A stretch of DNA of 64,000 nucleotides from an uncultured Chloroflexia bacterium. Its GTDB lineage: Bacteria > Chloroflexota > Anaerolineae > JAAYZQ01. Made by a program: the position numbers and the translations under genes. How positions within the stretch are numbered: the stretch's first letter is position 1; each line of letters opens with the position of its first letter. The stretch covers positions 192,001 through 256,000 of the forward strand of contig CAVOXA010000009.1 in NCBI GenBank assembly GCA_963700285.1, given 5' to 3'. This document shows, piece by piece, positions 35,897 through 47,416 of the stretch. The notes beneath the pieces were generated by a model that ran no database searches, was not told the DNA's origin, and saw nothing but the letters and a program-made list of their open reading frames with translations.

Positions 35897-36082
35897 TTCA
35901 CCAACGACACGCACTTCCGGGCGTCACCCAAAATCGAGTAAGCGCCAAACATGCCACCTACTACTCTGCAAGGGCGACCTGACCCCGCCAGATGGCGGGG
36001 TGAGAACGCGCCGTTCGGCGCTGTTGTCTCCTGCACGGGCCTGCTATACTCTGCCTGGTATCCCATCTACATGGAGGCAACG

Positions 36083-36724
36083 ATGACCGAATCGAAAGGT
36101 ACCAAGTCAAAGGCATCCCGCAGCGCCAAGCGTGCTCGTTTCGCTGAGCCGGAGGCAAAGTCAGGCGGGGCCTCGCCGGTGGTCCTGATCGCCGGCCTGG
36201 TTGTGGTCCTGGCTATTATTGGCGGGATCGCTCTCTTGCTGGCAGGCTCGTCCCCAACGGCCGCCGAACCTGCCGCCGGCTCTCCTTCCAATACTTTGAC
36301 CAGCAATCGGACGGGCAGCCAGGGCCTGCTGGTCAGCGCCGCGACACAGGGCCACGATCCGTATCCCCTGGCCGTGGCCGAGAATGGCCAGGTACGGCTC
36401 CCGCTCTCCACCTTTGACGACTATGAAGCCCACTATTACACCTATATGCACGAAGGCAACTCCATCGAGTTCTTTGTCCTCAAGAGCCAGGACGGCACCG
36501 TTCGAGCGGCGTACAATGCCTGCGATGTGTGCTTTGCAGCCAAGAAGGGCTACACCCAAGATGGCGACGAAATGATCTGCAACAACTGCGGGCGCCGATT
36601 CCCCGCCGACCAGATCAATGTGCTACAGGGCGGCTGCAATCCCTCTCCTTTGACCCGAACTGTGGAGGGGGATACACTGATCATCCAGGAAGCGGATATT
36701 CTGGCCGGCATGGGCTACTTTTAG
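36083..36724 (+). CDS. DUF2318 domain (Cys-rich, putative Fe-S/metal) membrane-anchored protein
   Basis: 'RAAYNACDVC', 'GY.Q.G..MICNNCG..F', 'GGCNP.P'; one TM helix; GGAGG RBS. Confidence 0.9.
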   Translation: MTESKGTKSKASRSAKRARFAEPEAKSGGASPVVLIAGLVVVLAIIGGIALLLAGSSPTAAEPAAGSPSNTLTSNRTGSQGLLVSAATQGHDPYPLAVAENGQVRLPLSTFDDYEAHYYTYMHEGNSIEFFVLKSQDGTVRAAYNACDVCFAAKKGYTQDGDEMICNNCGRRFPADQINVLQGGCNPSPLTRTVEGDTLIIQEADILAGMGYF

Positions 36725-36736
36725 GGGGTGCCAACG

Positions 36737-37894
36737 ATGCGGTTGAGAGATGTAACCCTACGCAACCTGCGTCGCCGCAAGGGACGCAAACTTTTGCTCG
36801 TTGCCGGCATGTCCATCGGGGTGGCGACCGTCGTAGCCCTGATGGCCATCACGACGACGATGCAGGCTGATGTCGCCACCAAGCTGGACGAGTACGGGGC
36901 TAACATTCTGATCGTACCCAAGGCCAATGATCTCTCCTTGTCCTACGGCGGCGTTGCCGTCGCCTCAGCAGCCTACGACGTCGGCGAACTGACCGAAGCT
37001 GATCTGGACCGCATCCAGACCATCAAGAACGCGCGCAATATCAGCGTCGTCGCGCCCAAGCTTCTGGGGGCCATGCCCATCGGCGGCCAAACGGTGCTGG
37101 TGGCCGGCGTGAGATTTGACGACGAACTGCGACTCAAGCAGTGGTGGGACATGGAGGGCGCTGAGCCAAACTCCCAGGACGAGGCTCTGGCCGGACTGCG
37201 CCTGGCTCGCACCCTGGATCTGGGCGCTGGCGATGACGTCAACATAGACGGCCATACCTTTCGAGTGACAGGTATCCTGGCCGAGAACGGATCCCAGGAT
37301 GACGACATCCTCTTCATTGACTTGGGTGCTGCCCAGCAAGTCATGGACAAACCCCAGAGCGTGAGCCTGGTGGAGGTGGCCGCTCTCTGTACCGAGTGCC
37401 CGGTAGAGGATATGGTCGAGCAGATCGGCGGCGTGCTACCTCAGGCGCGCGTAACTGCCCTCAGGCAGGCCGTGACGCTTCGTATGGAGACGGTAGGGCA
37501 GTTGAGCCGCTTTGCCCTGGCCGTGTCAGCGGTCGTGGTCGCCATCGGTGGATTGGTGGTACTGACCACCATGCTGGGTGCCGTGGCCGAGCGGCGACAG
37601 GAGATCGGTCTGTTTCGGGCGCTGGGATTCCGCCGGCAGCACGTGATGAATATTGTACTCGGCGAGGCTGCCTTGGTCAGCCTGGCAGGGGGCATCGTGG
37701 GCTGGTTGGTGGGCATGGCCGCAGCCATCGTATTGTCACCACGCTTGGCCAGCCTGACTTCCGCTGTGCAGTGGAATCCTTGGCTGGCCTTGGGCGCAGT
37801 CGGCGGAGCACTGCTCGTCGGCCTTCTGGCCAGCCTGTACCCTGCCATCAGCGCCTCACGGTTGGATCCAACTACCGCGCTGCGGTCCTTGTAG
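36737..37894 (+). CDS. MacB/FtsX-type ABC transporter permease
   Basis: 'RNLRRRK', extracytoplasmic domain containing ALCTECP, 'ERRQEIGLFRALG', 'YPA..A.RLDP..AL'. Confidence 0.92.
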   Translation: MRLRDVTLRNLRRRKGRKLLLVAGMSIGVATVVALMAITTTMQADVATKLDEYGANILIVPKANDLSLSYGGVAVASAAYDVGELTEADLDRIQTIKNARNISVVAPKLLGAMPIGGQTVLVAGVRFDDELRLKQWWDMEGAEPNSQDEALAGLRLARTLDLGAGDDVNIDGHTFRVTGILAENGSQDDDILFIDLGAAQQVMDKPQSVSLVEVAALCTECPVEDMVEQIGGVLPQARVTALRQAVTLRMETVGQLSRFALAVSAVVVAIGGLVVLTTMLGAVAERRQEIGLFRALGFRRQHVMNIVLGEAALVSLAGGIVGWLVGMAAAIVLSPRLASLTSAVQWNPWLALGAVGGALLVGLLASLYPAISASRLDPTTALRSL

Positions 37895-37908
37895 GGAGGG
37901 TATGGGGC

Positions 37909-38580
37909 ATGATCGAACTTCAGAACCTGACCAAGACCTACAATGGCGGCAGCGTGCCCGTCCATGCCCTGCGGGACGTGACTTTCCACGTCGACGAAGG
38001 CCAGTTCGTGGCCGTCATGGGACCTTCGGGTTCGGGCAAGAGCACGCTGCTCACCGTCCTTGGGGCGATGAATCCACCGACACGGGGCCGGGTACAGGTC
38101 GACGGAATCGACGTCTATGGCCTCCCGCTTGAACGCCAGGCTGATTTTCGCCAGGAATATGTAGGATTTGTCTTCCAGCAGCTCCAGCTCTTGCCCTACC
38201 TCACTGCCCAGGAGAACGTGCTGCTGGCTTTGGCCATCGCCCGCTTGCCCAAGCAGGAAAAACTGGCGCGCGCCCGCGAGGCAATGGAGCGGGTGGGGCT
38301 GCAAGGCAAAGAGGACCGGCTTCCCAGCCAGCTTTCGGGCGGGGAACAGGGCCGGGTCGCGGTGGCGCGAGCCATCGTCAACCAGCCGCCGCTTCTCCTG
38401 GCCGATGAGCCGACCGGCAACCTGGACCAGGCTACCGGCACACAGGTCCTGGACCTGTTGCGGGATCTAAACAGTGCGGGCCAAACCGTGATCATGGTCA
38501 CCCACGACCTGCAGGCTGCAGAATATGCGAGTCGCAAGGTAAACATCCTCGACGGCCGGATCGTCGGCGATCACCAGTAG
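37909..38580 (+). CDS. ABC transporter ATP-binding protein (LolD/MacB type)
   Basis: GPSGSGKST, GFVFQ, LSGGE, LLADEPTGNLD, VTHD. Confidence 0.95.
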   Translation: MIELQNLTKTYNGGSVPVHALRDVTFHVDEGQFVAVMGPSGSGKSTLLTVLGAMNPPTRGRVQVDGIDVYGLPLERQADFRQEYVGFVFQQLQLLPYLTAQENVLLALAIARLPKQEKLARAREAMERVGLQGKEDRLPSQLSGGEQGRVAVARAIVNQPPLLLADEPTGNLDQATGTQVLDLLRDLNSAGQTVIMVTHDLQAAEYASRKVNILDGRIVGDHQ

Positions 38581-38677
38581 TCCCATTCGACGCAAGAAAG
38601 AGCGCCAGCCATGTGGGCCATAGACCCGGGCTGGCGCTGAAGCGCCTACTACGAACCTGTGCTCACCTACCGCGCAA

Positions 38678-39493
38678 CTACTGCTCCGCCTGGTAGCGCT
38701 CCACGATTTCGCGGACTGTGGAAACCTCGATGCCCAATTGACCGGCCAGATCGCGCATCCGCAAGTGGGTATCCACTTCCTCGGGCAACCCCAATTCGGC
38801 GATCAGAACCTCCAGCGGCACCTGGCACAGGTCGACGACCTCCTGCAGGGTCATCCGGCCTTTGATCTGGGAGCCGGGGAGTGGGCTGCCGTCCTCGGGC
38901 GGCAGTACTCCCGACCCGGCACCATCGCCCAAGCCCTGCCCCTGATCGCCGCCCGCACCAGATCCCTGGGGCACATGGTCATCGCCGGCCTCAGGGGTCA
39001 CAGGCTGCTGTGCAGGTACCGCAGTGGGCACGGCTGGCGCAGCAGCGGGCTCAGCTGGAATCGGAGTCGGCTTGAGAGGAGCCCGAGACGGCGCCGACTC
39101 AGGCTCTTCCACTGCCTCAGGAGCCTGTTGAGCATCACCAGGAATCCACGTTCCACCGAGGTAGGCAGCCACAGCAATCCTGAGGGCCCACACTTCCGTG
39201 CCCGGCACCAATTTCTCCAGCTCTTTCAGCTCTGTTTCAGGAGGCACTGTCTCATCGGCGCCGATCATTGTATAGAGGACGTCCAGCGGGATGTCATAGG
39301 TTTCGGAGACGGTAGCCAGCGTCATCCAACCCTTGATGCCAGCCGGATCGGCCTGGCCGCTTTCGTCCAGCATGACTTCGCCCCGGCCGCTGGTCTGCCA
39401 GACACCGGCAGCCTTGGCGATCCATACGCTGCCCAGAAGAGTGAGTACAACCAAAACCGGCATCAGGTACTTGTTCACCTTGATGGACTTCAT
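38678..39493 (-). CDS. Membrane-anchored hypothetical protein with two 'IKGxMTL..V' repeats and Pro-rich linker
   Basis: Start overlaps the polyferredoxin stop; one N-terminal TM helix; duplicated ~55-aa module. Confidence 0.75.
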   Translation of the reverse strand: MKSIKVNKYLMPVLVVLTLLGSVWIAKAAGVWQTSGRGEVMLDESGQADPAGIKGWMTLATVSETYDIPLDVLYTMIGADETVPPETELKELEKLVPGTEVWALRIAVAAYLGGTWIPGDAQQAPEAVEEPESAPSRAPLKPTPIPAEPAAAPAVPTAVPAQQPVTPEAGDDHVPQGSGAGGDQGQGLGDGAGSGVLPPEDGSPLPGSQIKGRMTLQEVVDLCQVPLEVLIAELGLPEEVDTHLRMRDLAGQLGIEVSTVREIVERYQAEQ

Positions 39494-40362
39494 ACTACAC
39501 GCTCCTTCTTGCTGGGCTTCAGTGCTCCCGGTAGGGCGGGCCCCAGCGTGACACTTAGGGCTCCGTGCCGGGGACAGACGTCCACACACTCCAGGCAGCC
39601 GATACAGTCGGCCGAGACTGCCAGATCGGCCTGGGCCACGTCGATCTTGACCGGGCACTTCAAATTGCACACGCCGCAGCCCAGGCACTGGCTTTCCTCG
39701 CGCCGGATGCGCAGCAGGCTCAGGTTGCCCATGATGCTGATGGCTCCACCCAGAGGGCAGAGGTAGCGGCACCAGGAGCGCTCGATCAAAACAGCACCGG
39801 CCGTGACAACAAGGGCCACGGCGTAGGCCGGCCAGTGCTCGGCCAGGTTGAACTCAAAGATCCAACCCAAGCCAAAGATCGTACGGTAGGGGTCATAGTC
39901 CGCGAACCACAGTCTGACGGTGGAGACGGTGGCATAGAGGATGAGGGCCAGGGTCAGGTAGCGACCGTAGGTCAAAACGCGATCTAGCCGGGCCGGGACC
40001 TTGATCTCGGGCAGGTGCAGCTTCTTTCGGATCCAGTTGAGCAGGTCCTGGAAGGCGCCAAAAGGGCAGATCCAGCCGCAAAAGGCACCTCCGGCCAGGA
40101 TCACACCGGCGATCAAGCCCAGCAGCAGGACCAGGTTGGACTGGTGGGTCTTTTGGACAAAGAGCCCTCCGCTGCTCAGCCAACGCCACAGCGTCTCAAA
40201 ACCGCCAAAGGGGCAGTAGGCGTCGATAGAAGCCAAATGCTCTGTCGTGATGACATTGTGGCGGATACTGCTGACAATGATAAAAAGCCCAAAGCCCACC
40301 TGGGTCATGCGGCGAAGCAGTTGGGTGCGAGGCCACTGGACCTTCCTGCTGGCAGTTGCCAT
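39490..40362 (-). CDS. Membrane polyferredoxin (NapH/MauN/RdxA-like 4Fe-4S binding protein)
   Basis: 'CPFGG', 'FCGWICPFG', 'WCRYLCPLG', and two CxxCxxCxxxCP motifs. Confidence 0.92.
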   Translation of the reverse strand: MATASRKVQWPRTQLLRRMTQVGFGLFIIVSSIRHNVITTEHLASIDAYCPFGGFETLWRWLSSGGLFVQKTHQSNLVLLLGLIAGVILAGGAFCGWICPFGAFQDLLNWIRKKLHLPEIKVPARLDRVLTYGRYLTLALILYATVSTVRLWFADYDPYRTIFGLGWIFEFNLAEHWPAYAVALVVTAGAVLIERSWCRYLCPLGGAISIMGNLSLLRIRREESQCLGCGVCNLKCPVKIDVAQADLAVSADCIGCLECVDVCPRHGALSVTLGPALPGALKPSKKERVV

Positions 40363-40405
40363 GATGGATCCCCCCTTGCCACGTGTTGTTCCCCCGAACT
40401 TGGCC

Positions 40406-40459
40406 AGTGTAATGGCAGACTGTGAAGAAGTTGTGAAAAAGAAATGCATAAACTGTGAA
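40406..40459 (-). promoter_or_regulatory. TTCACA-N5-TTCACA direct-repeat box plus -10 (TACACT)
   Basis: tgtgaa at 40421, 40432 and 40454 (11-bp phase); -10 element 9 nt downstream on the minus strand. Confidence 0.65.
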
Positions 40460-40683
40460 GGCCCAGCAGCCCTCGCATGCCTATTTGGCAGCATGGATCT
40501 GTGATAGACCATGGGCAGGAAGGTCAATGAAGCGTGGGGCAAGCGCACGGTTCTCGTGGCCTCGAGGGAGTTGACACCTGCCAATTCCTATACTACACTC
40601 TTTTGAATATAGAAACTGTGAGGATACCCGTATCCGTCTGGGCAGAATTCCGTTAGAGTGATTAGTTGATAACCATTGCTTCC

Positions 40684-41244
40684 ATGCCTGCGGACGAGAA
40701 GGCTCTGATCCAGTCAGCTCAGCAGGGCGACGCCGAGGCCTGCACTGTGCTGTACAATCGTCATTATGATGCTGTCTATCGCTACTGCTACTACCGGGTA
40801 GGCGATGTACACCTGGCTCAGGATCTCACAAGCGAGGTCTTTGTACGCATGGTGGACAAGCTGGACACATTCAGAGTACGTGGGCGGCCACTGCTGGCCT
40901 GGCTGTACACCATCGCCCGCAATCTGATCACTGACATGCAACGCCGGCAGGGAAAGGCGGCCCTCATGCCGCTGAACGAAGCATCTGAGTTCCACATGGG
41001 TGACGAGGCAGATCTCACCAGAGACGTGGAACGGAAGCTCGAGGCCGACTGTCTGGCAGCCGCTCTCCGGCATCTGACCGAGGAACAACGCCAGGTGATA
41101 CTGCTCAAGTTCATGGAAGACCTGGATAATGGCCAGGTTGCCCGCCTGCTGGGCAAGACCGAAGGGGCCGTAAAGTCGTTGCAACACCGGGCGCTAGGAG
41201 CATTGCGCCGAGCCGTCACGAAAGAACGCTGTTATGAAGCATGA
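40684..41244 (+). CDS. ECF-family RNA polymerase sigma-70 factor
   Basis: 'AQDLTSEVF', 'AWLYTIARN', 'L..EQRQVILLKF', 'VA.LLGKTEGAVKSLQHRAL..LR'. Confidence 0.95.
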   Translation: MPADEKALIQSAQQGDAEACTVLYNRHYDAVYRYCYYRVGDVHLAQDLTSEVFVRMVDKLDTFRVRGRPLLAWLYTIARNLITDMQRRQGKAALMPLNEASEFHMGDEADLTRDVERKLEADCLAAALRHLTEEQRQVILLKFMEDLDNGQVARLLGKTEGAVKSLQHRALGALRRAVTKERCYEA

Positions 41245-42616
41245 CCTTGATACCGCACTGGACCAATGTCTGGTCAATCTGCGCGGTGGGATGGACATCG
41301 AGAGTTGTCTGGCACAGTACCCAGAGGATGCCCACAAGCTGCGGCCCTTGCTGCAGTTGGTGACGCAGGTAGGCGGGGTGATCATCCCGGCTTCGTCCTC
41401 TGCAGCACGCGCCGCGGGGCAGGAGCAGATGCTGACCGCGCTGGCCAGGAGGCGCGAGCGGGAAGGCGCGACCGATCGGTTCGTCCGTGCCATCAAACGG
41501 ATGGCAATTGGGCTTGTCCCAGGAAGACTCTGGGGCCCGGCGCCAGGTTGGAGCCTGACAGCCGCCGCACTGCTGGTCATCGTGCTGGTTGTGGCTGGCG
41601 GAGTGACTGTCAGGGCCTCAGCAGAAAGTCTGCCGGGTGGAACTCTTTACCCACTGAAACTGGCCAGCCAAAGGTTACAAGTGGCGCTCACCTTCGATGA
41701 GGCGAGGCAGCAAGGACTGGAGGTACAGTTTGAAGCCCAAAGACGACTGGATGTGCAGGCGGTGCTCAAGGGTGGCCAGCAGGCGTCCGTCGAATTCCAG
41801 GGAGTGCTCCAGCGCATGGAGGGAGACATCTGGGTGGTGGGCGGCCTATCAGTCACTTTGCAGGACTCGACCGAGATCTTGGGGCAGCCTCAGCGGGGGG
41901 CCCTGGTCCGGGTGCGGGGCAGCCTGCCCGGCAACGGTAGCCTGCTGGCCACCTGGTTGCACGTGGAGCCAGGCATAACTCAGGAGCCCAGCCAGACACC
42001 ATCGGCAACGGCAACAGAAACGGTGGTTCCGTCTGAGACACCAGAGCCAACCGACACGCCGCAACCGAGCGACACACCACAACCAACAGAAACTGCTGAG
42101 CCAATCGAGACGCCTGAGCCAAGGAGCTCCCCAGAGCCAAAGGAGACGGAAGGGCCGGACGAGACTCCCGAAGCAGGCGAAACCAGTGAGTCCGAGGCGA
42201 CGTCAGAACCGGTCGAGACACCAGAAGCTAAGGGCACACCGGAGCCCGGGGACGAAGCGGAACCCACCGAAGCACCAGAGCCCGAGGATACTCTAGAACC
42301 CGGAGGCGAACCGGACCCGACCGACGCGCCAGAGCCCGAGGATACTCCGGAGCCCGAACACAAACCGAAGCCAACCGATGCGCCAGAGCCCGAGCATACT
42401 CCGGAGTCCGAACACAAACCGAAACCAACCGATGTGCCAGAGCCCGAGCATACTCCGGAGCCCGAACACAAACCGAAAGCAACCGATGCGCCAGAGCCCG
42501 AGCATACTCCAGAGCATGAGGACGAAGCGGAACCGACCCACGCACCAGAGTCGGACGAGGCGCCAGAGGCTGGCAAAGCAGGTCAGGGTGAGCTAGCCAT
42601 ACCGCCTGACGATTAG
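41234..42616 (+). CDS. Putative anti-sigma factor, DUF5667 + DUF5666-like domain with acidic Pro-rich repeat tail
   Basis: Overlaps the sigma gene; 'LDQCL..L', TM helix, 'SLPG..LYPLK...', OB-like 'F.G......W.VGG..V', EPE/TP repeats. Confidence 0.85.
   Translation: MKHDLDTALDQCLVNLRGGMDIESCLAQYPEDAHKLRPLLQLVTQVGGVIIPASSSAARAAGQEQMLTALARRREREGATDRFVRAIKRMAIGLVPGRLWGPAPGWSLTAAALLVIVLVVAGGVTVRASAESLPGGTLYPLKLASQRLQVALTFDEARQQGLEVQFEAQRRLDVQAVLKGGQQASVEFQGVLQRMEGDIWVVGGLSVTLQDSTEILGQPQRGALVRVRGSLPGNGSLLATWLHVEPGITQEPSQTPSATATETVVPSETPEPTDTPQPSDTPQPTETAEPIETPEPRSSPEPKETEGPDETPEAGETSESEATSEPVETPEAKGTPEPGDEAEPTEAPEPEDTLEPGGEPDPTDAPEPEDTPEPEHKPKPTDAPEPEHTPESEHKPKPTDVPEPEHTPEPEHKPKATDAPEPEHTPEHEDEAEPTHAPESDEAPEAGKAGQGELAIPPDD
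42270..42550 (+). repeat. Intragenic 54-bp tandem repeat (18 aa: EPE(H/D)TPEPEHKPKPTDAP)
   Basis: About 5 copies, three near-identical, e.g. ccagagcccgagcatactccggagcccgaacacaaaccgaa. Confidence 0.85.
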
Positions 42617-42719: not shown

Positions 42720-43694
42720 ATGGATCTTCGCGCGACCAGCTTTGAGGGGCGTCTTGCCCATAACCACGTCAGCCGCAGGCAGTTTCTCAAGTTCTGCGGA
42801 CTGATGACGGCCACGCTGGCCCTGCCGGCCCACTATACCGGCCGCGTTGCCAAGGCCCTGATGACAGCACCACGCCCGCCCGTGGTCTGGCTCGAGTTCC
42901 AGGACTGCACCGGCGACACCGAATCGTTCCTGCGGGCCAGCCAGCCGGGGGTGGACGAGCTGCTGCTGGACATTCTTTCCCTGGACTATCACGAGACACT
43001 CATGGCACCGGCCGGTGCCATGAGCGAGAAATCGCTGCAGGACACGATGAGCCAACTTTCCAGGCCAGTACCTCTGCGTCGTGGAGGGTTCGATCCCCAC
43101 CGCCGCCGGCGGCATCCACTGCATGATCCGCGGCCGGACGGCGCTCAGCATCGCCCAGGAGGTATGCAACAACGCCCTGGCAACCCTCGCCGTGGGCACC
43201 TGTGCCTGGGATGGCGGCCTGGCCGCCGCCGCCGCCCAACCCCACCGGGGCGGTTGGCGTCAGGGATGCCGTGCCCGGGCTGCAGCCCGCTCATCAACCT
43301 GCCCGGCTGCCCGGCCAATGTCGTCAACATCACGGCGACGATCATCCACTTATCTGACCTTCAACGAGTGGCCGCAGACCGACAGTTCGGGGCGGCCCCA
43401 CTTTGCCTATGGCGAGGAGATCCACGACGAGTGCGAACGGCACGACCACTATGAGCACGAACGGTTCGTGCTCGGCCTGGGGCGACCAGGGACACCAGCA
43501 AGGCTGGTGTCTGTTCAAGATGGGCTGCAAAGGACCGGAAACCCACCACAATTGCCCCTCAGTCAAATGGAATGACGGTACCTGCTGGCCCATCGAGGCC
43601 GGGCACGGCTGTCGTGGGCTGCGCCGAAGCGGGCTTCTGGGATCGGATGACACCCTTCTACGTGCCGCTGAACGACGATGAGCATGATGACTAG
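42720..43694 (+). CDS. Group-1-type [NiFe] hydrogenase small subunit (Tat-exported), multiple frameshifts
   Basis: SRRQFLK Tat motif; '[16 protein letters not shown]', 'YHETLM', 'VEGSIP', 'GTCA..GG', 'PGCP', 'HDEC', '[17 protein letters not shown]...WN...[11 protein letters not shown]....FWD'. Ends [12 protein letters not shown] with no TM anchor. Confidence 0.9.
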
Positions 43695-43798: not shown

Positions 43799-45608
43799 AT
43801 GTCCGATCCAACGCCCAATGGGGCGAATAAGCTTCATCTGCCGCTCATACAGGGCCATGATACCTCGGGGAGAGGCGTGCCGCCGGCCTCACAGAGGATT
43901 GCCATCGATCCCATCACGCGGATCGAGGGACACCTGCGCCTCGAGGTCCAGATCGAGAACGGCCAGGTCACCGACGCCTGGAGCGCGGGCATGATGTTCC
44001 GGGGCATCGAGCTGCTGCTGCCGGGGCGGGATCCCCGGGATGCCTGGGTCTTTGCCCAGCGCATCTGCGGCGTCTGAACGACGGTTCACGCCATCTGCTC
44101 CGTGCGAGCAGTTGAAAACGCCCTGGGCATCACCATTCCCGACAATGCCCGCATCCTGCGCAACCTGCTTGAAGGCGCCCAGTTCGTCCAGGACCACGTG
44201 ATTCACTTTTACCATCTCCACGCCCTGGACTGGGTGGACATCGTCAGCGCCCTGTCCGCCGATCCGGCGGCCACCAGCCACCTGGCCCGGTCCATCTCGG
44301 ACTGGCCCAACTCCAGCCCGGCCTACTTTCAGGGGGTGCGGGATCGCCTGCAGACCTTTGTGGACAGCGGCCAACTGGGCCTTTTCGCCAACGCCTACTG
44401 GGGCCATCCCGCGCTACAAGCTGCCGCCCGAGGCCAATCTCCTGGCCGTGGCCCACTACCTGGAGGCGCTGGACTGGCAGCGCGAGATCATCAAGATGCA
44501 TGCCATTCTGGGCGGCAAGAACCCCCATCCGCAGACCTACCTGGTGGGCGGCATGGCCATTCCGGTCGACCCGAACAGCCAGCATGGCATCAATCCGGAG
44601 CGGATCGCCCAGCTGAAGCATCTGGCCGCCCAGGCTCTGGAGTTTGTGCAGAAGGTCTATCTCCCCGACCTGCTGCTGATCGCCTCCTACTATACGGAAT
44701 GGGCCGGACCTGGGCGAGGGAGTGGGCAACTATCTGGCCTATGGCGACTTTCCCGCCGACACTAGCGGCAATCCGGCTGCCCTGTGGCTGCCACAGGGCG
44801 TCGTCTGGAACAAGGACCTCGGCAGCACCGCCAGAAGCCCTGGACCACAACCAGATCCGGGAATATGTCACCCACTCCTGGTACAACTATGCGGAGGGAG
44901 ACGGCGCTGGCCAAGCATCCGTGGGATGGAGAGACGGACTGGAACTATACCGGGCCGCAGCCACCCTTCGACCAACTCGATACGGACGGCAAGTACTCCT
45001 GGCTCAAGGCGCCGCGCTACAACGGCCAGCCCATGGAGGTCGGACCGCTGGCGCGCATGGTGGTGGCCTATGCCGCCGGCCACAGCCGCGTGCGAGAGCT
45101 CGTTCGACTCAGGTGCTCGACCAGCTGGGCGTTGGACCTGAGGCCCTCTTCTCGACGCTGGGCCGGGTAGCGGCGCGGGGCATCGAAACGCTGGTCATCG
45201 CCGAAAAGCTGCAGGGCTGGATCAGCGAACTGGAAACCAACATGAACAGCGGAAACCTGGCCATCCACAACGGGGCGCAAGTGGGATCCCAGCACCTGGC
45301 CGGCCCAGGCCATGGGCTGGGGCATCACCGAAGCGCCGCGCGGTGCGCTGGGCCACTGGGTGCGCATCGAGAACGGGACGATCGCCAACTACCAGTGCGT
45401 CGTGCCCAGCACCTGGAACGGCTCGCCCCGCGACGCCCTCGGCCAGCGCGGCCCCTGGGAGAAGGCGCTCATCGGCACGCCGGTGGCCGATCCGGAAAAG
45501 CCGGTCGAGGTGCTGCGCACCATCCATTCCTTCGATCCCTGCATGGCCTGCGCCGTGCACATCGTCGATCTAGATGGTCGCGAGCTGACAAGGATCCAGA
45601 TCGTATGA
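43799..45608 (+). CDS. Group-1-type [NiFe] hydrogenase large subunit with in-frame UGA in L1 motif (putative Sec); several frameshifts
   Basis: AAGGAG RBS; '[11 protein letters not shown]', 'FRGIE', '[14 protein letters not shown](TGA)TTVH', '[10 protein letters not shown]', 'GGKNPH', '[10 protein letters not shown]', '[10 protein letters not shown]', 'YQ.VVPSTWN', L2 '[12 protein letters not shown]' plus a 15-aa C-terminal extension. Confidence 0.92.
44075..44114 (+). other. In-frame UGA and candidate bacterial SECIS hairpin
   Basis: TGA at 44075-44077; stem CTGCTC (44095-44100), loop CGTGC, GAGCAG (44106-44111). The loop starts 24 nt after the UGA with G at loop position 2. Confidence 0.65.
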
Positions 45609-45631: not shown

Positions 45632-45895
45632 ATGTGCCTGGCCATTCCAGCACAGATCAGGTCTATTGACGGCTTTGAAGCACAAGTGGAGATCGGGGGG
45701 GTGAGCCGCACCATCAGCGTGGGGCTCACCCCTGATGCCTCGGTCGGCGATTACGTGTACGTCCACACCGGCTTTGCCATCAGTGTGGTTGACGAGGCTG
45801 AAGCCCAAGAGAGCCTGCAGTTGCTGCGGGAACTCGCCGATACCTACCCGGTGGAAGAGTTGTTCCTGTCTACCGGCGACCTCGCCCCGCCGTAG
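45632..45895 (+). CDS. hypC: HypC/HybG/HupF hydrogenase maturation chaperone
   Basis: MCLAIPA N-terminus; 'VGDYVYVHTGFAI'. Confidence 0.95.
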   Translation: MCLAIPAQIRSIDGFEAQVEIGGVSRTISVGLTPDASVGDYVYVHTGFAISVVDEAEAQESLQLLRELADTYPVEELFLSTGDLAPP

Positions 45896-46066: not shown

Positions 46067-47416
46067 ATGGATGTTGTTAGGTCGAAATGGCTGATAATCA
46101 GCGTCTTGTTCCTGGCTGGCCTCTGTGCCAGCATCGTCGCACTCAGCGCCTGGACCGAACCGGCTGCCGCCGCGCCCGAACTGGGTGCGACGGGGCCCGG
46201 TCTTGAAACCGGCTCTCCGGCTGCTGGCAATTATGTCGTTCTAACTTGGAACGATCTGGGCATGCACTGTTACAACCCTGACTTTCAGGACATCGGCGTC
46301 CTGCCTCCCTGGAATACCCTTTGGGCGCAGGTTGTCCGGGTGGGGAACCCGCCCCAGATCGTCAGCAGCGGCATCAAGGTGACGTTTGAGTTTCCCGACA
46401 ACACCTACTCGGTTGGCAAGTCCGACTTCTGGGACCAGAGCCCCTACCGGAGCGGCCAAAACGCTGAACTGCTCTTCAATCTGCCCCAGCCCTTGCCGGC
46501 AAACGTAGGCTTGACCGGTACTGGCTTGGCAGGTGAGATGGAGCTGCGCGGAGATCACTTTGTGGCTGAAGGAATCCCGTTGACAGAGTACCGGGACAGT
46601 GCCCCCTCAACTCCCTACCCCTACCAGTTGGCGACGGTCATCGCCCGTGACGCCAGCACCGGCCAGGAACTGGCCCGTACCGTGACCGTCGCGCCAGTCT
46701 CGACAGAGATGCACTGCGACAACTGTCACTATGACAATGGCCCTGGCAATGAGGATTTCGCCACAGGGGTAGTGGAGCAGAACATCCTGTCCCAGCACGA
46801 TGAAGAGAACATGGACAAGTACCCAACCGGTCACCAGGGAGCATTGATGAACCGGCGGCCCGTTCTCTGCGCCGAATGCCACGCCTCGAACGCGCTGCAA
46901 GCCCCCGGTGCGCCGGGCGTCCCGAACCTGTCGAAGGCCATCCACGACAAGCACGAGGGCAAGGTCCCCGACACGCTGGCGGGCTGCTACAACTGCCATC
47001 CAGGCCCCCAGACCGAGTGCCTGCGCGGCGTCATGTCGGACCAATATGACATGGATTGCATGGACTGCCACGGCGGCATGGATGCCGTCTCCAAGAACCC
47101 CAATCCCTGGCTCAACGAACCGCGCTGCGACAACGCAGCCTGCCACGGCAGCGCCTACCAGCAGGACCAGCCCCTGTACCGGATGTCCAAGGAGCACGGC
47201 GGCGTCTATTGCGAGGGTTGTCACGACAGCACGCATGCCATCGCCCCCAGCGCCGAACCGAATGACGCCATCAAGTTCATCGCCTGGCAGGGGCACGCGG
47301 GCACGCTGGACACCTGCACCGTCTGCCACGCTTCTCAGCCTTCGGGTGGGGGTCCGCACGGCTCCGAGCCGTCACAGCGTTGGTACCTCTACCTGCCGCT
47401 CGTCGTGCGGAACTAG
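46067..47416 (+). CDS. Secreted multiheme cytochrome c (6 CxxCH + 1 CxxxxCH) with C-terminal 'YLYLPLV' motif
   Basis: Signal peptide; N-terminal 'WNDLGMHC' domain; CDNCH, CAECH, CYNCH, CMDCH, CDNAACH, CEGCH, CTVCH; AGGAGG RBS. Confidence 0.92.
   Translation: MDVVRSKWLIISVLFLAGLCASIVALSAWTEPAAAAPELGATGPGLETGSPAAGNYVVLTWNDLGMHCYNPDFQDIGVLPPWNTLWAQVVRVGNPPQIVSSGIKVTFEFPDNTYSVGKSDFWDQSPYRSGQNAELLFNLPQPLPANVGLTGTGLAGEMELRGDHFVAEGIPLTEYRDSAPSTPYPYQLATVIARDASTGQELARTVTVAPVSTEMHCDNCHYDNGPGNEDFATGVVEQNILSQHDEENMDKYPTGHQGALMNRRPVLCAECHASNALQAPGAPGVPNLSKAIHDKHEGKVPDTLAGCYNCHPGPQTECLRGVMSDQYDMDCMDCHGGMDAVSKNPNPWLNEPRCDNAACHGSAYQQDQPLYRMSKEHGGVYCEGCHDSTHAIAPSAEPNDAIKFIAWQGHAGTLDTCTVCHASQPSGGGPHGSEPSQRWYLYLPLVVRN

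Follow-up and report, generated by a model that had tools for sequence, protein, structure and literature searches.

Likely selenocysteine at the predicted Ni-Fe bridging ligand of a group 1f-like [NiFe]-hydrogenase from an uncultured Chloroflexia bacterium

Gene content of the hydrogenase locus

The DNA analyzed here (the window) is a stretch of 64,000 nucleotides from contig CAVOXA010000009.1 of an uncultured Chloroflexia bacterium, and it carries the small and large subunit genes of a [NiFe]-hydrogenase together with the neighboring genes listed in Table 1. In addition to the hypC gene of the locus, hypD and maturation proteases are encoded elsewhere in the genome. We infer an anti-sigma role for the DUF5667/DUF5666 protein. 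It and the sigma factor precede the hydrogenase, as does a DUF5666 protein or similar open reading frame in three relatives (L257, L258 and L259), which suggests dedicated regulation. Farther upstream, genes for an FtrD-like protein, an ABC transporter and a 4Fe-4S membrane protein (35951–40584) are possibly an iron uptake locus.

Table 1 Features of the hydrogenase locus, with positions in the window
Feature	Position	Strand	Basis
ECF-type sigma factor gene, upstream of the hydrogenase genes	40666–41244	+	Domains
DUF5667/DUF5666 protein gene with Pro/Glu/Thr repeats, beside the sigma factor gene	41234–42616	+	Domains
Hydrogenase small subunit gene: Tat signal, CxxD, GCKGP, no C-terminal membrane anchor, 6 insertions	42720–43694	+	Homology, motifs
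Large subunit gene of the group 1f-like [NiFe]-hydrogenase, assembled with 7 single-base insertions	43799–45608	+	Homology, same-genus comparison
HLPLI motif in the N-terminal extension of the large subunit	43835–43849	+	Translation, motif count
L1 motif R-I-C-G-V-U (CxxU)	44060–44077	+	Sequence, translation
In-frame TGA at the second Cys position of L1, likely Sec	44075–44077	+	Translation, alignment to solved hydrogenases, TGA in relatives
SECIS-like hairpin, 6-bp stem (CTGCTC 44095–44100, GAGCAG 44106–44111), loop CGUGC (44101–44105), overlapping codons I-C-S-V-R-A-V	44095–44111	+	Fold, covariation, genome chance count
L2 motif DPCMAC, all Cys	45534–45551	+	Sequence
hypC, maturation chaperone gene	45632–45895	+	Homology
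Multiheme cytochrome c gene, 6 CxxCH and one CxxxxCH, product ends YLPLVVRN	46067–47416	+	Domains; syntenic in same-genus genome

Type of hydrogenase

Over its first 168 residues the large subunit is about 79% identical (counted by eye) to the HydDB group 1f entry of Roseiflexus castenholzii, and the best match among solved structures, 3MYR, is more distant. On this by-eye identity we class it as group 1f-like; the tree described below contains no 1f reference, and a plasmid search for subgroup references returned none above 55% identity. The catalytic Glu, the canopy Asp and the Arg are retained. In HydDB the 1f rows (Roseiflexus, Acidobacterium and Frankia) show cytochrome b as a partner and no U at L1, whereas the enzyme of the window has a TGA at L1, the CxxD motif, an N-terminal LPLI extension, no small-subunit anchor and no adjoining cytochrome b gene, cytochrome b being in HydDB a predicted accessory and not the basis of the class. 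Other members of its clade (see below) do have cytochrome b beside them (L262), the anchored ones adjoining cytochrome b or HybA-like genes, and in the sub-branch of the window the missing anchor coincides with the LPLI-bearing extension of the large subunit.

A classical HysAB enzyme would have DPUxxC at L2, and here the first L2 position is Cys; the intact orthologue from a same-genus genome scores 409.9 against NCBIfam NF045518 (cut-off 780) and 221.9 against NF045520 (cut-off 470). Nor do the findings point to group 4, as the best matches are to group 1, the small subunit has a Tat signal and no antiporter genes lie among the neighbors scanned. A single-sequence AlphaFold model of the orthologue had a pLDDT of 35 and was set aside.

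The LPLI motif is concentrated at protein ends in this genome, with 60 matches in the last 10 residues of its proteins and about seven per 5-residue bin elsewhere. About 50 proteins end in a [YF]LPL[IV]xR-like motif, including the multiheme cytochrome c encoded two genes downstream of the hydrogenase (motif at 47390–47416). Searches of Pfam and NCBIfam yielded no name for this tag, which is possibly a surface-sorting signal.

The small-subunit proximal-cluster motif varies within the clade between CxxC, CxxD (as in the window) and CxxN (L031–L228). A link between Sec at L1 and CxxD or CxxN was considered and rejected, as all three motif types occur both with Sec and with Cys.

An in-frame TGA codon in the L1 motif

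An earlier note on this DNA, made from the sequence alone, had claimed that a TGA replaces the second Cys of RxCGxC and that reading frame and homology continue past it. Both statements hold: the codon stands in R-I-C-G-V-TGA-T-T-V-H-A, with an open, hydrogenase-like frame continuing to about 44410, 110 codons farther on. In alignments to solved hydrogenase structures the TGA falls on this second Cys, which is conserved in homologs and is equivalent to Cys79 of Escherichia coli Hyd-1 (query residues 1–171 on chain residues 15–186, with a one-residue gap as in the Hyd-5 alignment). L2 is all Cys, as the note had read it; thus the motifs show the N-terminal CxxU arrangement of [NiFeSe] enzymes, with the Sec codon at the second L1 position and Cys at both L2 positions.

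The note had also cautioned that the gene holds many indel errors, distinct in kind from the TGA substitution, and this is borne out. Relative to the intact same-genus copy, the large subunit gene has seven single-base insertions past the TGA and the small subunit gene has six, or 13 in about 2.9 kb of hydrogenase genes vs 109 in 111.6 kb of other aligned regions. That is about 4.5 times the density elsewhere, and the flanking sigma factor and cytochrome genes are nearly clean, which is what one would expect if the Sec codon were real and inherited but this copy were a decaying pseudogene with 13 genuine frameshifts. All 13, however, are +1 insertions and no new stop has arisen; the differences from the intact large subunit gene are mostly synonymous (125 synonymous and 53 non-synonymous, with 39, 21 and 132 changes at codon positions 1, 2 and 3); and selB and selD of the same genome are frameshifted too, with similar insertion clusters elsewhere. 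Contigs of relatives from four sequencing runs lack the extra bases near 44413, 44827, 44907, 45106 and 45277. Assembly error is the likely source of the 13 insertions, and a decaying copy is unlikely, keeping a small share of the probability because of the raised local insertion rate. None of the 24 sequencing runs listed (shares 0.05–0.08) carries the stretch itself and none is an RNA run. The codon is confirmed by its conservation and not by reads of the source sample.

The TGA codon in relatives and databases

The intact gene at the syntenic locus of the same-genus genome has the same TGA, as do close members of the family. A search of relatives gave a match in 25 of 61 genomes, and 22 of the 30 loci fetched have TGA at L1, as CxxU or UxxU. 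In an even sample of the class, 108 of 401 genomes have a group 1 match (124 matches in all); 57 of these matches, spread over 52 genomes, have one or two TGAs within their first 171 residues, and the TGAs lie at L1 ligand positions in 51 of 51 translated genomes of those 52. An alternation of TGA and Cys at this codon across Chloroflexota, which the earlier note had proposed to look for, is present in the class genomes, and it is found again in the clade tree below.

A pattern scan of GTDB DNA that required TGA at the second L1 position gave at least 118 matches. Among the 118 listed, 115 are hydrogenases (58 CxxU and 57 UxxU) and three are chance matches. Where the records listed are named, most belong to Anaerolineae or other Chloroflexota, to Nitrospirota or to Desulfobacterota, and a few to Bacillota, Myxococcota and other groups. 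A codon-blind metagenome search yielded 73 distinct loci (34 CxxC, 15 CxxU and 24 UxxU). UxxC did not occur in 180 distinct loci not chosen by pattern, a set that provides no frequency estimate because fetching covered almost every TGA row and only some of the Cys rows. L2 is CxxC in all 108 TGA-type rows in which it was recovered.

Could the TGA have arisen by sequencing error, or be a genuine stop codon that breaks up or inactivates the gene, with the hairpin (below) there by chance? The large subunit gene does contain many assembly errors, and database products that begin past L1 exist. Such an origin is nevertheless refuted by conservation, since the identical codon occurs in well over 100 other genomes and contigs, solely at metal-ligand positions and with frames intact through L2; moreover, the hairpin has a chance of about 1 in 8,000 per TGA, and it covaries. 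The probability left to error or a true stop is negligible, and by its conservation the TGA is a genuine codon.

The expectation that gene callers split such genes proved correct, as 19 of the best 120 database homologs begin past L1. A full-length JGI protein that aligns with a TGA locus over 60 residues shows C at the site, so some pipelines may already read through. Five genomes each encode two TGA-type group 1 hydrogenases with differing partner genes (G001, loci L257 and L260; G006; G013; G153; G408).

A conserved and covarying hairpin downstream of the TGA

The hairpin described in the earlier note, a perfect 6-bp stem with its loop starting 24 nt past the UGA and G at loop position 2, is present (Table 1). 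G at loop position 1 or 2 is the rule for bacterial SECIS elements according to Takano et al. (2026; PMC13582414). Among the 196,014 TGA trinucleotides of the genome, 79 are followed by a perfect 6-bp/5-nt hairpin in the same register, 24 of them also with G at loop position 2.

A FastTree phylogeny was built, with the L1 and hairpin columns masked, from 150 large subunits, of which 149 are rows with more than 400 residues and a recovered L2 and one is the N-terminal fragment from the window. It places the window in a clade of 102 rows (support 86) comprising 62 UxxU, 27 CxxU and 13 CxxC sequences. All six pairs of the hairpin are present in 82 of the 89 TGA-type genes of this clade and in none of the 13 Cys-type genes; the other seven TGA-type rows have a stable hairpin variant, apparently bulged. 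The loop core GUG is invariant among the TGA-type rows. Within the clade pairing holds in 96.4% of cells with 59 double-sided changes, and the covariation score is 0.341 (0.104 when shuffled; 0.068 for the best slid control), all of these counts being inflated by relatedness. Double-sided changes occur at three pairs (U-A/A-U/G-C, G-C/C-G and C-G/U-A) and force paired changes in the overlapping residues (C/A, S/A, A/G and A/S). RNAalifold returns exactly those six pairs as the consensus and nothing more. A conserved lower SECIS stem is absent from this consensus and was rejected, and a UGA-containing 5-bp hairpin predicted for the window alone is unsupported by it.

Because relatedness inflates such counts, independent pairs were also counted on the tree: hairpin and TGA change in the same direction in 8–9 of 9 pairs (median p 0.008, with an energy threshold set from the data). 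In the codon-blind metagenome set the full hairpin is found in 14 of 15 CxxU, 12 of 24 UxxU and none of 34 CxxC loci. Conservation of the hairpin alongside the TGA, which the note had named as a check, is thus clear: the hairpin tracks the TGA state, and it covaries. The tree implies at least 16 changes between the Sec and Cys states. Several Cys-type rows sit within Sec rows and retain hairpin remnants, which suggests that they are reversions from Sec.

Selenocysteine machinery of the source genome and its relatives

The note had asked for selA, selB, selC and selD, and all four are encoded in the source genome, selB and selD being frameshifted in this assembly. Its tRNAs include one tRNA-Sec above cut-off, which has a UCA anticodon and a long variable arm, and a single tRNA-Cys of the ordinary kind, and other genes with a UGA and a downstream hairpin are selD, two formate dehydrogenase genes (loop CGGUC) and an MvhD gene. 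selA occurs in 55 of 57 TGA-type genomes and in 30 of 42 Cys-only genomes, and is so common in the latter that its co-occurrence is weak evidence. A tRNA-Sec was found in 50 of the 57 TGA-type genomes, among them all 33 of high quality and both of those without a selA match.

A UGA in SECIS context can also be decoded as Cys, by tRNA-ReC (SelC*); the hairpin would then recode the UGA as Cys and leave an ordinary all-sulfur [NiFe] site. Takano et al. (2026; PMC13582414) found tRNA-ReC enriched (about 56%) among genomes that encode UxxU enzymes of group 4 and caution that decoding of such UGAs may yield Cys. The tRNA complement of the source genome speaks against this. A general Rfam search found no tRNA-ReC in the source genome (89% complete) or among the 57 TGA-type genomes, all 13 weaker matches in the latter being tRNA-Ser or tRNA-Leu, and decoding as Cys is accordingly very improbable here, less probable still than decay of the gene.

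A relaxed ARAGORN tRNA search and motif regular expressions for other selenoproteins in the genome both gave noise only. On the plus strand at G000:C1:551570–551620 two close TGAs (RL-TGA-G-TGA-GLRW), with a strong CGU-loop hairpin after them, possibly mark an unannotated, frameshifted UxU selenoprotein gene. In one relative (L262, G041:C27) a tRNA-Sec gene and a UxxU hydrogenase gene are about 7 kb apart.

The predicted double-Sec form and a rare isoleucine codon

In the clade of the window, the Ile codon that precedes the first L1 ligand is ATA in 58 of 62 UxxU genes vs 3 of 27 CxxU and 1 of 13 CxxC genes; the background among Ile codons downstream in the UxxU genes is 236 of 1,563. The site falls within L1, an 18-nt motif counted from its Arg codon (for example in L038, L040 and L041). 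About 9.5 of 13 independent tree pairs agree in direction (median p 0.002), and the pattern recurs in the codon-blind metagenome set, where ATA occurs in 19 of 24 UxxU, 1 of 15 CxxU and 1 of 34 CxxC loci. The rare ATA may provide a context that aids decoding of the UGA more distant from the hairpin.

Taking these results jointly, we somewhat favor the reading that a large group 1f lineage in anaerobic Chloroflexota, Nitrospirota and Desulfobacterota has been overlooked, in which Se at the Ni-Fe bridge would be normal and most members would be double-Sec enzymes (a natural Se2S2 site), with one hairpin and the AUA codon serving to decode both UGAs and with the sub-branch of the window anchorless and surface-tagged.

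Comparison with known selenium-containing hydrogenases

Textbook [NiFeSe]-hydrogenases have Se at one terminal ligand, and engineering work marked the terminal ligand position as special. The classical group 1a HysAB enzymes of Desulfovibrio and Desulfomicrobium resemble the enzyme of the window in being exported soluble dimers with one active-site Cys replaced by Sec. Their Sec, however, is the terminal first ligand of L2, whereas here L2 is DPCMAC, the canopy Asp is kept and the medial motif is GCKGP.

The earlier note had called this a different kind of [NiFeSe] site. Sec at the bridging ligand is strongly supported, but the site type is not new: a bridging Sec was already predicted in the literature (PMC13582414), and HydDB includes group 3c entries from RefSeq that have CGVU. 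The caveat that databases might already contain L1-Sec proteins was justified. In the accessible parts of these sources, Baltazar (2011), as cited by Takano et al. (2026; PMC13582414), reported N-terminal CxxU, predicted to be bridging, for two sequences of group 1 and one of group 3; Evans et al. (2021; PMC8020662) cite the same review for a C-terminal bridging site, which disagrees with that citation. The HydDB supplement (PMC5037454) shows CGVU in three group 3c rows (Desulforudis audaxviator, Desulfotomaculum gibsoniae and Thermodesulfovibrio yellowstonii) and CGIU in one group 4g row, and its accessible portion has no UGVU row and no group 1 row with CGVU. The N-terminal CxxU enzymes of groups 1 and 3 are like that of the window in having the Sec codon at the second L1 position, the predicted Ni-Fe bridge; only two of the CxxU sequences cited from Baltazar belong to group 1, whereas here a large group 1f-like lineage has CxxU and UxxU.

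Takano et al. (2026; PMC13582414) report N-terminal CXXU, UXXC and UXXU in 47 of 23,473 group 4 sequences (0.2%), with groups 1–3 excluded, and in the text accessible they call UXXU previously unrecognized. Both sets confine Sec to the N-terminal motif and occur as CxxU and UxxU, and both have a G in the SECIS loop and a mosaic Sec/Cys tree. They differ in that the group 4 enzymes are energy-converting complexes and those described here are Tat-exported group 1 enzymes; for the latter, 57 of the 124 class matches are TGA-type, UxxC did not occur in 180 loci and no tRNA-ReC was found. As far as the accessible text goes, selenoproteome reviews (PMC13188914, PMC9312934) give hydrogenase large subunits as UxxC only, a Chloroflexi preprint (10.1101/2021.08.23.457424) notes group 1f variants in Anaerolineae with selenocysteine unmentioned, and PMC6776052, PMC10779653 and PMC9961374 hold nothing decisive.

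In the literature covered, outside of which lie most subscription journals, we found no Sec in group 1f, no large 1f lineage in which Sec is common, no group 1 UxxU enzyme, no rare AUA before a first UGA and no work on Sec at this ligand in an enzyme from nature. The lineage, its abundance and the double-Sec form in group 1 would then be the additions to a site type known from prediction, and the surprise is limited, since for other groups the idea has already been published.

Proposed function

Sec at the bridging N-terminal ligand, as the earlier note had it, is supported by a codon shared across phyla, by a covarying hairpin that tracks the TGA and by the Sec machinery. We are confident that the UGA at the second L1 ligand is real and consider it very likely to encode Sec at the predicted bridging ligand; that a selenolate would bridge Ni and Fe is predicted through the alignment to Hyd-1 Cys79 and by Takano et al. 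(2026; PMC13582414). In such a scheme SelB would bind the GU-containing loop of the hairpin 24 nt downstream and deliver the Sec-tRNA, directing decoding of the UGA as Sec, and the product would be a group 1f-like uptake enzyme whose Ni and Fe are bridged by one selenolate and one thiolate. The Tat signal would export the hydrogenase dimer, which, being anchorless, is likely held at the cell surface through its N-terminal LPLI tag. It would oxidize H2, with electrons likely passing to the adjoining multiheme cytochrome c. In this picture of an exported, surface-held H2-uptake enzyme, the electron partner and the surface tag are suggested solely by gene order and motif.

The Hyd-1 C79U variant, in which Sec occupies the same ligand position, differs in being artificial and built on an O2-tolerant group 1d scaffold. 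According to Evans et al. (2021; PMC8020662), it is active at 13% of native, the best of four variants; its KM for H2 is lower and it tolerates O2 less well. Because of these two properties a role of Se in tuning H2 affinity and oxidation under anoxic, low-H2 conditions is preferred over O2 protection, although we put it forward only tentatively.

Bridging-Sec enzymes with single or double Sec have Cys-type sisters at 80–90% identity, which makes the effect of Se testable position by position, and UxxU genes are a natural test of one bacterial SECIS element decoding two UGAs 9 nt apart. Because gene callers cut the genes ahead of L1, about half of the group 1 hydrogenases of this class may be overlooked or wrongly labeled in surveys of H2 metabolism in anoxic communities.

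Two further kinds of TGA-bearing hydrogenase were noted. A separate branch (L054, L087, L099, L113, L114, L117 and L135) has CxxU or UxxU at L1, an all-Cys L2 and mostly shorter large subunits (480–560 aa) that are apparently group 1a-like; it includes Desulforudis, Syntrophomonas and others and may include the two group 1 sequences of Baltazar (2011). A Myxococcota record (L118) has a group 3-like large subunit with CGVU at L1, which groups with the all-Cys group 3 enzyme of the source genome of the window.
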